64,000 nucleotides of DNA from Okamejei kenojei (Eukaryota): contig CM069156.1 in assembly GCA_035221665.1 (NCBI GenBank), positions 26,412,001 to 26,476,000 of the forward strand. The letters run 5' to 3'. A program made the position numbers and the translations under genes. This document shows, one piece after another, positions 7,418 through 26,955 of this stretch; the first letter of the stretch is position 1; each line of letters opens with the position of its first letter. The notes below the pieces were generated by a model, which did no database searches, was not told the origin of the DNA, and worked only from the letters and a program-made list of their open reading frames with translations.

Positions 7418-7499
7418 GTGGCTGCTGTGGATCAGATCATAAGCAATATGTCATTGGGGGATGGGCCTGGGCCTGGTGGTGCGTCTCGCAGGCACAGAG
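7418..7499 (+). CDS. FLOT2: Flotillin-2 coding exon 2 (82 nt, phase 1 to 2): (G)GCCGSDHKQYVIGGWAWAWWCVSQAQ(R)
   Basis: Flanked by tttctag| and |gtgaga. The translation matches the vertebrate FLOT2 N-terminus (GGCCGSDYKQYVFGGWAWAWWCISDTQR), including the Cys-Cys pair that is palmitoylated in mammals. Too short for the ORF track. Confidence 0.96.
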
Positions 7500-19653: not shown

Positions 19654-21175
19654 AAGCTCTGGCCGGTCTCCGGCAGGAAAGGCCGTGCCAATGCAGATGG
19701 TAGGCTGCGAGCCATTGCAATGTTCTCAGCATCAGTCAGGCAGTGAAGGATGGATGATACTCTCCTTCAATCCTTCAGACCAGATTGAGGAGCAGAGACT
19801 GACTGGCTGCATATGGAGCGGAGATGCTCACTGCAGACACGGCAAAATACAAATCTTTCTTTATAAATCTTCTGTCTTTCCCTCGGATCTTCCTGGGCTG
19901 GGTCCAGTGTCTGTAATGGCCTGCTGCCACTGAGAAAAGGATGGTGCCAGAACAAGCCTTTGTTCCAAGTTGGGGAAAGGTCATCCAGCATTCTTCAGAA
20001 ATACTTATTCTGAGTTTGGAATGACTGGTGAGGCGGCTCCAGCAAGAGTGGGATTGGAGTCACACCTGTCAAAATATTGTCATGGGAATGCTTTGCCATT
20101 GTCCAAATCTAAAACTGTAGCCCTGCTTGAACAGATTCTCCCTTTATTTTGAGTGTATTATCTTTTGCTTTGCACAGTTATAGCTTGACCTCCACACCTC
20201 AAATCCTGTCTGTGCTTTCCATCATCAATTTAATCTTGATTTACTTGTTAGGAATACATCACGGGCATTTTTTTTGAAGTTGTACATTTCTAATTCTGTC
20301 TGAGGTGGGAACATTAAAACTATATGATAACAACCAGTTCTATGCTTTGACACAGCTCTTAAGATTTTGCATCAGAGTAATTAACATTGAGAAGATGATC
20401 CCACCGTTGAATCCTCAAATATTTGGCATTTCTGAACCTTAATAATAATAAAAAAAACTGCTGGAACACAGACTATATGACAGAATCCTATATCAGGCAG
20501 TCAGCTTGTGAATTATTCTCAAATAACTGGACCATCAGACTTTAATGCAATTAGGAATCTAATTCCCATCAATCTGTTAGATGCTTTTGTCAAAAACTAG
20601 ACTTTAGGTTATCAGTAATGTTTTTGCCGTTTGGAGAATTCACTTTGATTTTGAAGAAAACATTGTTTACAGGGCTTGGACGTTGCTGGCAATGACAGAA
20701 ATGTATTTTCTCGAAAATAAGTATGTCTCCTGGACTATCAAGTCTCGTATCACTACATCCCTGTCTGACTTCACCCTTCCTGCTCTGCCTCAGAGCCAGT
20801 CTTGGTGACACAAAGTTGGCGGCTGCTTTTGCTTGTGTTAGCCAGCTACTATATGCCAATATCTGTTTTTAAGGATGCTTTAGTGAAATGAGATTGAATG
20901 ATCTTGGTCTACTTCCTTGTTCCAAATTTCCAGGCTGACTTATCCTGAGCTTGCATCGTATGGAAATCCCAGCGTGACACTGCAGTTGGTGCTCGACTGA
21001 CGTTCAAGACTCTGTAGTAGCTTGAAGGATATTTCACTCTGCATCCATCCACTCATGCTCTACAAAAATACCTAATCTCATTGAGATTATACATTAGCTT
21101 GATGGTACAATGCTTGGATACATCGCCCTCCTAGAAAAAACAAAATCATATCTGTGCCAAACAGTGAGTTACTTC

Positions 21176-21310
21176 TTCTTCTTCCGTGTGGCGTGCACTG
21201 CCTAAAGTTGTTGGACAACTTGTTCTATTTGATCTTCCCTTTGTGCACGTCGAGTTGATTGCATTAGTCGAAACAGGGCGGACCTCGTGAAGGTTGCAAT
21301 CTTCCACCCC
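21176..21310 (-). mobile_element. 135-bp non-autonomous non-LTR retroposon (possibly Ingi/Vingi-type) with a 5' HDV-like ribozyme and a (GAA)n tail
   Basis: Perfect direct repeat agtgagttacttc at 21163-21175 and 21311-21323. The 3' end reads ...gcacgccacacgGAAGAAGAA. The 5' end coincides with ribozyme G1. The clade assignment is inference. Confidence 0.85.
21257..21310 (-). ncRNA. Minimal HDV-like (CPEB3-type) self-cleaving ribozyme motif, 54 nt
   Basis: The minus strand reads GGGGUGG-AA-GAUUGCA-ACC-UUCACGA-GGU-CCGCCCU-GU-UUCGA-CUAA-UGCAAUC. This gives P1 (7 bp, G1.U36 wobble), P2 (7 bp, perfect), P3 (3 bp), a 7-nt L3, P1.1 C22-G37, and J4/2 CUAA carrying the putative catalytic C. Activity is untested. 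Confidence 0.88.
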
Positions 21311-21723
21311 AGTGAGTTACTTCAGGAGTGCCGTAACGACCCTTAAATGCAAAGAACTGCACTCGCTTCAAATATGTTGAATTATCTTTGAGACGTTTCA
21401 TTGGAAATGATTTGTAGCCTTCATTGTGAGCATCTACTCTTTGTGTTGCATATAATCATTTAACCATTAAAGAAGTAGTTAGAAAATTGGTCATTGCACT
21501 TTCAGAATAGAATGCATTTTGTTTTGAAAACTTCTGTGTCATAATGATTGACAATGATTTAAAATTGAACAGCTGGGCTGTTATAGCTCAGCAATATTCC
21601 TGGTGCACATTTGTTGGGAAGGAAACCTGTTTTTAGCAGTCCACCTAAAGGTTTCCAGCTGGATAGAATAAGAATTGCTGTCTGTCAGTTCCCTGGTCTG
21701 GTGAATCATCTGCTCTACATGCC

Positions 21724-21960
21724 AAAGATGGACACTAAATGCTGGAGTAACTCAGCGGGACAGGCAACATCTCTGGAGAGAAGGAATGAATGACGTTTCA
21801 GGTCGAGACCCTTCTACAGACTGATCAGTCTGAAGAAGGGTCTTGACCCGAAACAGCATCCATTCCTTCTCTCCAGAGATGCTGCCTGCCCCGCTGAGTT
21901 ACTCCAGCATTTTGTGTCTATCTTCGATTTAAACCAGCATCTGCAGTTCTTTCCTACACA
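21724..21960. mobile_element. Palindromic (head-to-head) Penelope-derived mini-element; similar ones at about 455-665, 2280-2435, 28715-28865 and 54815-54980
   Basis: About 95-bp inverted arms centred on gactga|tcagtc (21824/21825). The right arm carries an extra tail. Near-TSD ctgctctacatgcc / ctgctccacatgcc. Confidence 0.85.
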
Positions 21961-24861
21961 TCCTGCTCCACATGCCCTTGGGTTAGGGAGTTAAAAGCTG
22001 CACAGGCTTCCTAATCTCAAGGCAGTACACCTTGGTGGTCTATGATGTCTGATTTGACTGAAGAATGGATTTGTTCCTGATGCCAGCATTGAAAATGCAG
22101 ACTTGCAAATTAACCAATTTGCAATGGTGCTGGTGTTCGAATGCACCTACTGCAAACTTAAACTTTTTGAAGAGAATTTCACAAACTTTAAATTTTAAAA
22201 ACAAATTCCCATCATTAATTATTATAAGTTATTGAATTAAATCATATAGCAGCGATTGGAGCAAGCTTCATTACAGTAGATCTTTACGATATCATGAAGG
22301 AAATGTTTTTGTTATGTGACTAATATTTATGCCGAACATCAAGGGAACCTAGTTTTGAAACTGTCCTTGTTCATTATTAATTTTCATATTTGCAGTCAAC
22401 TGGCTAATATCACTGTTGTGTTATTGTATGTGATGTTATAAAGCTCTAGAGTCTAGAAACTAATAGTGTAATACAGGATGGGAACAAGCCATACAGCTCA
22501 CCACATCCATACTAACCATAATAATGTGTGAATTACTTGAGCTGATAACGTGTTGCAACCCAGTGAAAACGGCATCTCATTTCTGAAGGCTGCAGTCTAT
22601 ACACAAACACTCCAATGATACAATCAGCTATGAAAGCTTGGAAGCATCGATTTTTGTTGTGATCAGTTTCCACGTGATTGCCGTCCGCTTCTAACATTTA
22701 ATTAAGAGTAGCATCTCTTTTTTGTAGAATGCAATTATTACTCTGCCAAACCCAAATCTAATAATTTAGTATTGGCAAATGCTAAGTGGTGTGAAAATCA
22801 AAGATAGCGTGGACAAGATAGCAACAACACTTGATTCCTTAAACTTTACAGTCTAAATGTGAACATCAACATGGGAATTTATCCCGATATAATTTTGTTT
22901 TATAATCCATATTTTCTAGTCCAGTGTTACATCCAAATATTTCAGCAAATTGTTCGTTCAGTGGTTTTGGATTAATTGAATTTTGTTCTATATTGGTTAT
23001 CACACTGAAATATTTTATGCAGAAACCCCCTGACTCACCTCCAATTGCTGGTCAAAAGCTAATTTTCCTTTGAGAAAATAAAAGCTCCATTTTATATCAT
23101 CTCCACTCCCACTCATCTCCTGGCTAGTGAAATGTTTGTAGATTTAAAAAAAACATTTACAAAATGAATTTACAGTGAGACCATCTCAGGCAGAAGAGGA
23201 TGCAGCATAATCATTTCTGTTTCCTGTACAATGGTTATCAGCATAAATAACTCAATATAAGCCTGCCCTAGTTATGTTCCTTCTGTTCCCTGACCTCAAA
23301 ACTCGCGGAGGTGTTGATGGAATGTGCTCTGAATCTGAAAATAAAGATTGAAAAAAGAAATGTATGAAGGGAGCTGAGAAAATACTTCACAATTTCATAG
23401 TGTGCAAAAGCAGATTTACCATATTCCACAGACTCCTTGTGATCAGAAGCTCGTCACAAATTGAGAGAACATACCACAAATAGGAACCCGTAAGCCTTTG
23501 TGCCTGTGGAGTGCTTATTAAATAAACTTCAATACTTGTTCTAATGTCTCAATGTTCCATAAATGACCGGCTCAGTTCCCCCAAGTTCAAAATATCCTTG
23601 TGTTCTATGCAATTGAGTTACAGACTATAATTCTTGTCGGTAGTCTATCCAATTTTGACCGAACTAGCTTGCATTCTTTTGTCACCATTACACGGCAGTG
23701 AGGAATGACATTAGACACTGGCATTTACCAAAATTGCTCACATTATGGTTGTTAAGAGTGTAGTATTTAGGGACTAACATCTAGTTCTGGATCATTGGTC
23801 CAGAAACACGAGTGAATCTCACTGGGGAACATAGGGACAATTGAATTCAAAGAGTTTTTTTTAAACTAGAATTTTAAAAAAGCAATTAATCTTTGTAATG
23901 GCAGCCGTAAAGCTACTATTCAAAAGTTAACCTGGTTTGTAAGAAAGCAGCTACTCTTGGGTCTAGCCAGAGTTATCGATTATGGATGACTCATCAGCTG
24001 CCTCAATTTGGGAGTCATTAATGATGGTTAATAAATGGCCATAATTTTGTCATTGACGTCTATATCCCAAGAATAAACAAATGTTGTTCTTGGTCAAAAA
24101 AAAAGCCAAGGGAAGAGCTGCTTGGGAAAACTTGGCAGAATAGGTGGTTAGTGAACGAAATTCACAGGTGTTTTCCAGGTTTCTTTTCCAGGCCATGCAT
24201 TGCTGTTTACAGGACACCCAGAAACCAAGTTCAGCATTATCCAGTGTCGCTGTCGTCAAGACAGGACAGCGGTTCTGAGTACGGGTTTTTTTTTTGTCTT
24301 CCGTCAGGGTGTTTCCAGGATACCAGACTCGCCTCCAAGTCATGGATTGAATGTGGTGTTTTACCAGGATAAAATAACAGCATTTGAACTGCACTTTATT
24401 TTAAAGCAGATAACCTTTTGAGAATTGAAACACTTGCAGTCGTGAAATGTTTGCGTCGAGTGGTTTAACATTGATTATTGTAAAACGTAAACATTTGGAA
24501 TTGGCTGCGTAAGAGTGTATAAATCACGCATGTCGAAGTCCAATGTGTTTAATTTATTGTGTTATTGGAATATTGACTCGTGCATGGAACTTCAGAAGAT
24601 TTAACAGCAGGTATAGGCAGTTGAAAGTAAATCATGCTTTCTGTAAGCACAAAATGAAATGTATGGCTGCTAAAGTGCTGTTACAGTTCTTAAAGGATTG
24701 AATTACCTTGAACACCCATTGAAAAAGAAAGAATTGATTTCTTACTGTCACTGGGAGTTGGATTTCTCATGCTTTGTTCTGATGATTGCTCTGACTGAAT
24801 GTGTGCTGTCCCACCCCCTTCCTCCCCCATCCCTCCCCTGCCAACTCCTCCTGCTGCATAG

Positions 24862-24952
24862 ACTACCTCTGGAGATCATGACTGTCGTCTGTCAGTGTGA
24901 GGATATAGAAACCATTGAGGGGGTCCCTGTATATGTTACAGGGGTGGCACAG
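24862..24952 (+). CDS. FLOT2: Flotillin-2 alternative exon 3a (91 nt): (R)LPLEIMTVVCQCEDIETIEGVPVYVTGVAQ
   Basis: catag| acceptor after a C-rich pyrimidine tract and |gtaact donor. Open, phase-compatible with exons 2 and 4, and paralogous to exon 3b. Resembles the alternative mammalian exon LSLEVMTILCRCENIETSEGVPLFVTGVAQ (recalled). Confidence 0.92.
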
Positions 24953-25803
24953 GTAACTTGTTCTTAACCGTGTTGTATTTTCTTGCCTTGTTTTCTTGCC
25001 CCTCCTTCTCCCCATCCAACCTCCTTCCTTTCCTCTTCCCCCAAGCAGCAGCTGAATGTTGAGCTCTACTGCAGCACCTTCACCGCTTTATCCAAGTGGC
25101 ATGGCCTGTAGCACTGTAGGTATCGCACCAAGGAAGCGGATTGAACCCAACGAAGAGGCAATGGGCGAGAAAGAGGTGGGATGGATAGGTGGATTAAAAC
25201 ATTGACTAAAAATATTTAATAGTGGGTGTTCGCTGAGTACTTTGCCACTTCCACATCTGAAATCCAAGAGTGTCTAACACCCCTCATGAACAACTATTGA
25301 TTACAGATTACAATTCTCTAATGGACAGCTCAGAATTCAGAAGGTCTGCCACATATGAAATGCACTCACTGCAACAACAAACACAAATCCTTTCTGGAGA
25401 GAAGTTGCATCCCCCTGTGCTGAATTGTGGGGATTGTCTGGTATTAATAATTATTGTTTACCTTAAATAATAAGCTATGCTGTTCAATATAATGACTCGT
25501 TCTTTGTGAAAAGTCACGTGCAATAGTCCACTGAATAACATGGTTGCTTTTGCAACTTTATCAGCAGTTATAACTGTTGAGCAGTTTATCAGAAGTCATC
25601 TATGCTCTGAATATCTCATGAGGTCAGTCTCTTGGGAATAATCTAATGGTTTTACTTAAGCAGTTATTTTATTTAGATCAAGTTTATTTTGAGCTCAACA
25701 CATCTGGTTGGGTTTAAAGATAAAAGGATTGGAAGACAAAGGAAGTGAGGCTTGAGGCCTGTCATGTGACCTGGAATTTGCGAGTGTTTTACGTTTTCCA
25801 CAG

Positions 25804-25894
25804 GATTTCCCTTGAGATTATGACGCTTCAGCCCAAGTGTGAGGATGTAGAGACCGCAGAGGGGGTAGCACTAACTGTCACAGGGGTCGCTCAG
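25804..25894 (+). CDS. FLOT2: Flotillin-2 exon 3b (91 nt): (R)ISLEIMTLQPKCEDVETAEGVALTVTGVAQ
   Basis: ttttccacag| and |gtaaat splice sites. Peptide is nearly identical to canonical human FLOT2 (ISLEIMTLQPRCEDVETAEGVALTVTGVAQ). Confidence 0.97.
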
Positions 25895-26955
25895 GTAAAT
25901 AACCCCACAATCCCCAAAAATATGATTTCTAAAAAAAAACTCTTTGCAGCCTAAGCCTGTCAATAGGCATAATTAAAGCTTACTAATGCTTTTGCTTAAC
26001 TTAACAAAACAGTAGGAGGTCACACAATCTGTAATTTGTATATGAATAAAGTTCAAGGGTGGAAAATGTGTTTTAGAAGGGCCTGACTGTGAGAGCATTC
26101 AGGCTCATAGACATTTAATCAAGGCTCATTGTGTAAAGTCTTGGAATGTCATTTATCTTGGCTGAGCTGAGTGGCTTCCATGAAAAGTATTGCTGAATCC
26201 CAAAAGCTCAGCATCAAAATTATATGCTTGTGGATGAACACACAATCTGATGTATGATGCAAAATCTTTCACACGGTTTTCCACCTTTGAATGTTGGTGG
26301 TGAGCTGATTGTTCACTTTGGAACCATGGGAACATTTTCTCTAACGTTCGGTTAACTTTGCAGGTTCTGATTATTTTTGTTGTTGTTGACATGTGTTTCT
26401 ATTCTGCCTCACCTGGTTAAATGGAACTGCATGACCTTAAGATGAATGGCATTCTCCCTGGTTTGAGCCCATACATTGTGGGAAGTCGCAAGCATCCCGA
26501 GTTGTCTTGGTGGCTCATAATGGGGCATCAGCTTTATGGTACAACATGTGCCTGCATGCACCATAGCTATCTGTGGTTTCACTGGCCACACATTTTTGTC
26601 AATAAATGTGCAATATTGTTGGAGTATGTAACTATTAAGCACCATTGTTTTTTTTTTTAAGTGTAGACAAGTCTGTTGGAGTAATTGAGTACAAAGGTCT
26701 AGTTATGGTAAATTGTAAATCATTGGTTATGCTGCAGCTAGTGTATTGTGTTCAACAGAACAGCATTGTGAGCGGCTTCTGACTATAATGTAAGAATTTA
26801 TTTACTATTCTTTAAGCAGCAATTGTGCCCAGGAATAGCATTTTATGGTAGTCAACTACAAAATTTCACACCTAAATTTTGCATTTTAATTGCCTCTCCC
26901 TAAATAATGATAACACTTAATTCTGGATAATTGACAGCTAAGCATTTAAAATGAG

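Follow-up and report, generated by a model that had tools for sequence, protein, structure and literature searches.

The 135-bp element at 21176..21310 of the window (the 64-kb stretch of DNA analyzed here as a whole) very probably consists of the two joined ends of a V5-type LINE, about 71 nt from its 5' end and about 36 nt from its 3' end; the family to which it belongs numbers about 18,000 copies. For its first 54 nt, the likely structure is an HDV-like ribozyme without P4, with a predicted cleavage site just before G1, the first nucleotide of the element.

The insertion and its host gene

The element is a non-autonomous retroposon copy, a bipartite Vingi-like derivative of the short subfamily, lying on the minus strand (21176..21310). 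One copy of a 13-bp direct repeat, the target-site duplication (TSD), abuts its 5' end at G1 (21311..21323), and the other follows the tail (21163..21175), with its first GAA in phase with the (GAA)n tail at 21176..21184 (minus strand). The same tail is present on all five Vingi-like families sampled. Contigs of four public runs (run X11 is probably DNA) were aligned to 21060-21420; runs X17-X20, which have fewer than five words in common with the sequence, were left out. In three of the four (X3, X7, and X16, from organisms B, D, and H), the contig passes directly from 21161 to 21310 and omits 148 bases (135 + 13), as expected of the empty orthologous site, which shows that the insertion is real and arose after the lineage diverged from those organisms. 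In the fourth, from organism A, a contig extends from the flank into the 135-bp element. The minus-strand insertion with a 13-bp TSD and a (GAA)n tail, proposed in the first-pass annotation from the sequence of the window alone, is thereby confirmed. A splice-donor-like GTGAGT on the FLOT2 strand lies within the target site and was duplicated by the insertion (21163-21169 and 21311-21317, plus strand).

A flotillin-2 exon at 25802..25897 (31/32 residues, E 9e-15) places the host gene on the plus strand, and the element is therefore antisense and intronic, which supports the earlier statement that it lies antisense to FLOT2. A further exon near 7459 is presumably flotillin-like, judging from its sequence motif. 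The copy in the FLOT2 intron is most likely inert there, and this individual insertion is probably neutral. Two similar flotillin-2 exons in tandem (24674-24967 and 25802-25897, plus strand) resemble mutually exclusive alternative exons. A near-perfect palindrome of 200 bp at 21725-21924, with 100-nt arms that are 90% complementary and no spacer, probably represents two inverted copies of a common repeat.

The predicted ribozyme of this copy

Read on the minus strand from 21310 to 21176, the element opens with the nested double pseudoknot of HDV exactly as it was first claimed, the predicted P4-less ribozyme occupying nt 1-54 (21257..21310). P1 comprises 7 bp and includes the G1.U wobble (21304-21310/21275-21281), P2 comprises 7 bp (21295-21301/21257-21263), and P3 is ACC/GGU (21292-21294/21282-21284). 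These helices are connected by a 2-nt J1/2 (AA), L3 (UUCACGA, 21285-21291), J1/4 (GU, 21273-21274), a 5-nt linker UUCGA in place of P4 (21268-21272), and J4/2 (CUAA, 21264-21267), all on the minus strand. The predicted catalytic cytosine, C44, lies at 21267; it is an invariant column in the blind alignment of seven heads described below, and its role is assigned by analogy with the HDV family. Position 26 of L3 had been singled out for comparison with the family: the A is real in this copy, where it represents a shared minor variant, but the majority type is U.

The prediction draws on a structural descriptor with shuffled controls, on covariation across families, and on weak covariance-model matches in sister copies. 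A general HDV-like descriptor, composed after the element had been seen, matched the element as its sole occurrence in the 64-kb window and had no match in 60 shuffled windows (both strands) or in 20,000 dinucleotide shuffles of the element. The Rfam HDV and CPEB3 models had no match on this copy at E<=10, and no Rfam ribozyme matched locus L093. The HDV-F-prausnitzii model matched the 54-nt head with exact boundaries in two of three sister copies, weakly and at chance level (E 3.7 and 8.9). Bit scores were 14-16 on the sister copies and 32 on the head of family V4 and did not reach the gathering score of 44; the single model alignment inspected has a P4 hairpin in it. The thermodynamic fold of the element was unremarkable (z 0.49) by a method that does not handle pseudoknots. 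Judged from the sequence, a 2-bp UUCG hairpin in the linker, which would take up G37 and C44, could compete with the fold, and the upstream flank at this locus is predicted to pair with P1. J1/2 spacers of 0-1 nt are reported to leave the Agam-2 ribozyme with no or little activity (PMC4908430); the 2-nt J1/2 is kept in all five Vingi-like families of this genome.

Copy number, boundaries, and subfamilies

Two 28-nt patterns were searched in the genome with at most 2 mismatches: that of the ribozyme core matched 18,193 times and that of the middle part, which is specific to the element, 18,058 times, with no match for either reversed control. The near-equal counts suggest that most copies keep the head. 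Genome BLAST of the element returned 791 first-look candidates, and the 40 that were scored were near full length with 96-100% identity. Among 26 loci with an exact core match, chosen by their order along the genome, a sample that is biased to intact cores and includes a duplicated pair, the P1 5' strand stood at nt 1 in every copy (26/26), though it was absent from the search pattern. Twenty-three of these copies parsed at full length, with the whole fold in 20 and a TSD abutting G1 in 16; at the 30 best-BLAST loci, the corresponding figures were 23 and 27 of 32 copies. Moreover, each of the four runs shows loose contig ends piling up at 21310/21311, and the flanks of these are unrelated to one another. 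The coincidence of G1 with the element boundary thus holds family-wide, and the genome-wide check of copy number and common 5' ends proposed at the outset points to a family of about 18,000 members with G1 as their first nucleotide. The mode of the TSD length across the copies is 12 bp, which is the TSD size in the ingi clade (PMC3820030).

Two subfamilies were distinguished, one of 135 nt with CUAA in J4/2 and one of 139 nt with CGAA. Pairwise identity was 93-94% (14 and 5 copies), and 96.9% in a set selected by similarity. Neither of two copies met incidentally in unrelated loci had an intact fold; these are too few to weigh, yet they speak against most copies staying competent. Eight organisms carry at least 86% of seven words sampled for the family. 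Many copies also contain small internal deletions, some of them recurrent at the same short repeats, suggesting slippage of the reverse transcriptase.

The first-pass annotation described the head as unrelated to tRNA, and the analysis supports this: ARAGORN found no tRNA gene in the element, no Pol III A box within one mismatch and no exact B box were present in it, and the Rfam tRNA, 5S, and 7SL models had no match on this copy. The head is the 5' end of a LINE and lacks the tRNA, 5S, and 7SL features by which SINEs are classified.

The parental LINE

As judged from its sequence, the parent is a Vingi-like LINE of about 3.05 kb (family V5) with a single ORF that encodes an apurinic endonuclease-like domain (APE), a reverse transcriptase (RT), and a zinc finger, without RNase H. 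It was reached with a pattern of the C-terminal zinc finger, a motif that we take to be of the Vingi/Ingi type; the pattern had 1,344 genome matches, and the 30 loci examined fell into five families, all with a (GAA)n end. The V5 3' ends match the last 26-43 nt of the element with 81-91% identity in 11/11 loci, the common segment being nt 100-135 (21176..21211, minus strand), which includes the LINE stop codon TAG at 21204-21202. A search with the V5 5' region gave 48 first-look candidates, and 17 of 30 loci match nt 1-71 (21240..21310, minus strand; 83-93% identity) with the same P4-less head. Between the two segments, nt 72-99 (21212..21239, minus strand) form an element-specific junction, in which a 7-bp hairpin (nt 90-106) has its 5' arm. 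Both ends of the element occur in one V5 copy at four loci (L373, L374, L375, and L376); L374 runs from ribozyme to tail over 3,040 bp and has a flanking repeat. The element shares its first 71 nt and last ~36 nt with V5, so it is a bipartite, internally deleted LINE derivative.

The Ingi/Vingi-like partner sharing both ends that had been postulated was therefore found, and two parts of the original proposal have to be revised. Rather than a separate invention, a "ribozyme SINE", the element joins the 5' and 3' ends of V5 and falls into a known category, that of the SIDEs or bipartite non-autonomous LINEs. Likewise, the loss of P4 did not arise in the short element, as P4 is already absent from the parental LINE. 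At position 5 of P1, the LINE has a U-A pair and the short element a U.G pair.

The V5 RT was recognized by Pfam (E 9e-29). Its APE shares 35% identity (E 2.4e-21) with that of family V4, which matches the Pfam APE, and the 155-aa V5 APE fragment by itself had no Pfam match. No RNase H was detected by Pfam in the V5 and V4 segments, the V5 scan ending in the zinc-finger region about 65 codons before the ORF stop; the same scan of a Nimb-like control recovered RNase H at E 4e-13. A Vingi assignment is suggested by the compact ORF and the domain content, which fit Vingi as described in PMC13708176; the protein atlas gave generic RT clusters only. All V5 copies seen have a broken ORF, and no intact parental ORF was found among them. 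Their pairwise identity of 89.9% (10 copies) makes V5 older than the short element; that of the sister family V4 is 98.7% (8 copies). V4 (L314, L319, and L382-L386; e.g., G000:C1:131400610-131403810) is a very young 3.2-kb Vingi-like LINE with a compact HDV-like head, and the copies seen are frameshifted; it is a candidate driver of recent insertions. Separately, L350 (1399-2282) contains an internally deleted V5 copy of about 890 bp, and in four V5 copies (L303, L353, L354, and L369) the 5' head is inverted relative to the remainder.

Other searches for a partner were unproductive. Seed patterns made from the exact ends showed no recurring LINE among the first 100 of 273, 275, and 305 matches, nor in all 52 matches of a fourth pattern; they missed V5 because V5 differs there at single letters or because the search constraints excluded it. 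A PF14529 search led to elements which, by our own reading of the clades, are Nimb-like, CR1-like, and L2-like, and which have neither end in common with the short element. L107, L255, and L274 match 12 nt of the 3' end, which was taken as chance, L255 sitting in an apparent DNA transposon. RTE families A-G were rejected as parents: RTE families of this genome have HDV-like heads but, wherever an end was seen, different 3' ends. The HDV-like 5' ends of RTE families A, B, D, and E (L194, L201, L203, L214, L217, L219, L221, and L262) have a pyrimidine-rich P1 5' strand and a G-C P1.1, and these families are all old, with pairwise identities of about 84-93%. The RTE-A derivatives at L233-L242 have been shortened to about 760 bp by internal deletion; several have one common junction, suggesting a second bipartite family. 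L131 (G000:C2:28223500-28231500) is a two-ORF Nimb-like LINE with an unbroken APE-RT-RNase H frame of 1,276 codons.

The HDV-like fold in five Vingi-like families

All five Vingi-like families sampled from the genome begin with an HDV-like fold. Seven heads (the element, V5, V4, V3, two copies of V1, and V2) were aligned blindly with MAFFT, with no manual help, and the named structure was laid on the alignment: 124 of 126 cells pair (98.4%), 12 of 18 pairs show changes on both sides, none of 500 shuffles reaches the score, and slid controls pair in 37-48%. These figures lean upward, since well-parsing heads were chosen, the structure was derived from them, and the short element is nearly identical to its parent. 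Covariation, a check of which had been proposed at the outset, is strong across the five families. U20, C24, G25, the predicted catalytic C, and the A of J4/2 are invariant in 7/7 heads, and the P1.1 pair varies, being C-G or U-A in the aligned heads and G-C in the RTE heads. P1 and P2 turn over completely even among the families of this genome. On the V4 head, Rfam HDV-F-prausnitzii matched at E 1.1e-4 on the exact boundaries, and HDV at E 0.015. The P4 region measures 16-40 nt in V1-V4 and is replaced by the 5-nt linker in V5 and the short element, so P4 was lost in the LINE lineage.

A candidate stem joining the two ends

Complementarity between the two ends of the element suggests that a stem joins them. 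Its candidate 5' arm, nt 60-69 (21242..21251, minus strand), starts 5 nt after the 3' strand of P2, and its candidate 3' arm, nt 112-121 (21190..21199, minus strand), ends just before the terminal motif and the tail, which in the LINEs lie 3 kb away; in the window copy, 8 of the first 9 stem positions pair. The cognate 5'/3' duplex had the lowest mean energy in all five families. In a fixed register with Watson-Crick pairs only, on chosen copies, the cognate combination was best in three of four families, with 6.2, 8.8, and 8.0 of 10 positions paired in V1, V3, and V5, and with 5.2 in V4 against 6.6 when V4 was combined with its close relative V3. Register 0 beat the slid registers in three of four families. 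When single pairs were shuffled, V1-V4 reached significance (2-60 of 2,000) and V5 did not (299 of 2,000). The 3' end of V2 could pair with the 3' strand of P2 instead, and the arms of V5 contain a palindrome. Overall, the evidence for a real 5'-3' stem is suggestive.

Mobilization and alternative readings

Target-primed reverse transcription is the established mechanism of non-LTR elements. A copy of the short element would be transcribed either as part of a read-through RNA started at a host promoter or with its own head acting as promoter. The ribozyme would then trim the upstream host RNA, after which new copies start at G1, as their 5' ends do. A Vingi APE-RT protein acting in trans may bind the 3' end, and the stem in which RNA behind the ribozyme is complementary to RNA before the tail probably joins in this binding. 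Target-primed reverse transcription on the (GAA)n tail would complete the insertion with the duplication of about 12 bp that is seen in the TSDs. The parental V5 family would have supplied the protein first, and younger copies, including this one, may have used that of the younger sister family V4, which shares with the short element the tail and a few letters before it.

The same origin could also be combined with a head that is a catalytically weak or dead relic, whose main role would be that of an internal promoter, or of a stable 5' cap or protein-binding fold in the manner of Pr77, with the 5' ends set by the transcription start. There is precedent for such dual use, Pr77 of L1Tc/NARTc being promoter and ribozyme in the same 77 nt (PMC3383444); moreover, a short J1/2 can cripple activity (PMC4908430), and P4-less heads remain at chance level in Rfam. 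We nevertheless regard this reading as unlikely. The parent and every aligned family retain the catalytic C, the purine-A of J4/2, U20/G25, and the single pair of P1.1, P1.1 covaries (C-G and U-A, with G-C in RTE heads), and P4-less ribozymes with a catalytic C are active in vitro according to the theta preprint (10.1101/2023.06.13.544163). Mobilization by an RTE-clade LINE instead of Vingi appears highly improbable: RTE families of this genome do have HDV-like heads, one of which matches nt 10-30 of this copy at 18/21 positions, and RTE-A ends in (GAA)n, but the 3' sequence of the element is absent from RTE families A-G wherever an end was seen, and the RTE heads differ in their pyrimidine-rich P1 5' strand and their swapped P1.1 pair. 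The possession of both ends by the Vingi-like V5 largely refutes it.

A direct relationship of the head to the mammalian CPEB3 ribozyme, the latter being a domesticated Vingi 5' end, was also considered. The two share core numbering (P3 from 17, U20.G25, C22 in a one-pair P1.1 beside U-U, a 7-30 pair, and a 4-nt J4/2; PMC4836649), and Vingi traces occur in human DNA (X12_LINE; PMC5753468). Against this, the U20/G25 numbering holds for HDV itself (PMC4836649), the common letters are those of a constrained catalytic core that other Vingi and RTE heads here also carry, and P1 and P2 are replaced entirely from family to family within this genome. The Rfam CPEB3 model matched none of the heads scanned at E<=10, and the copy sits in FLOT2 rather than in a CPEB3 intron. 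We consider this relationship slightly less probable than a relic head; the link between head and CPEB3 is weak.

Returning to the bipartite V5 derivative with a functional head, a broader proposal is offered tentatively, at somewhat below even confidence: the Vingi clade as a whole may start with an HDV-like ribozyme and close its RNA by a covarying 5'-3' stem, the RT may recognize this two-ended structure, and the 135-nt element with an active P4-less ribozyme may be a natural minimal Vingi template. Recognition of a two-ended structure by the RT would explain why both ends are kept in Vingi non-autonomous elements. If true, no minimal HDV-like ribozyme before this one would have had a function in the genome of an animal. 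An extension of the proposal in which CPEB3 derives from a domesticated Vingi head is less likely.

Comparison with known systems

According to a review, hammerhead or HDV-like ribozymes are employed by some LINEs and SINEs (PMC6765202). No description of a Vingi ribozyme, an animal P4-less ribozyme, this family, or the 5'-3' stem was found in the passages of papers searched; given its abundance, the family may have been catalogued before. On the present reading, Vingi would join the retrotransposon clades whose 5' ends are processed by an HDV-like ribozyme, and the range of P4-less ribozymes would extend from gut phages to an animal genome, in about 18,000 copies and with a defined role. Direct assays could make use of the five sister families as a natural series of covarying heads. 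Why only a few LINE clades give bipartite derivatives is stated to be an open question (PMC5786205), to which the candidate 5'-3' stem would be an answer that lends itself to testing. Vingi-1 is in use for inserting genes by way of RNA, the donors having a UTR on either side (PMC13708176); a natural template of 135 nt hence shows which cis elements may suffice.

The short element has all the features given for bipartite non-autonomous LINEs in PMC5786205. Compared with Vingi-1_EE of hedgehog and other bipartite LINE derivatives, it comes with five families that have the fold and with a candidate end-joining stem. The closest parallels are NARTc and RIME, the partners of L1Tc and ingi in trypanosomes, in which the HDV-like ribozyme of a LINE 5' end is likewise joined to a LINE 3' end, cleavage occurs just before +1 (as is predicted for the short element), and the TSD is also 12 bp (PMC3383444, PMC3820030). 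NARTc, however, is 263 nt long and has a P4 helix, a poly(A) tail, and a demonstrated promoter (PMC3383444), while the short element measures 135-139 nt, lacks P4, ends in (GAA)n, and is present in about 18,000 copies in an animal genome, with an activity that is predicted only. The R2 SIDEs of Drosophila also combine a 5' ribozyme with the 3' end of the parent and are mobilized in trans (PMC3414825), as we infer for the short element; they are rDNA-specific, rare, and derived from R2, whereas the short element is dispersed, abundant, and derived from an APE-type LINE.

In terms of fold, drz-Mtgn-1 and the theta ribozymes share with the head a nested double pseudoknot without P4 and a catalytic C in J4/2. 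They occur in metagenomes and, beside tRNAs, in gut phages (10.1101/2023.06.13.544163), whereas here the fold heads a retrotransposon; the theta study, whose eukaryote screen covered human, mouse, and protists, is reported to have had matches in bacteria only. The mammalian CPEB3 ribozyme resembles the head in its G1-initiated 7-bp P1, 7-nt L3, single-pair P1.1, and 4-nt J4/2 (PMC4836649), and differs from the short element in being a single-copy, intronic ribozyme with a P4 hairpin.
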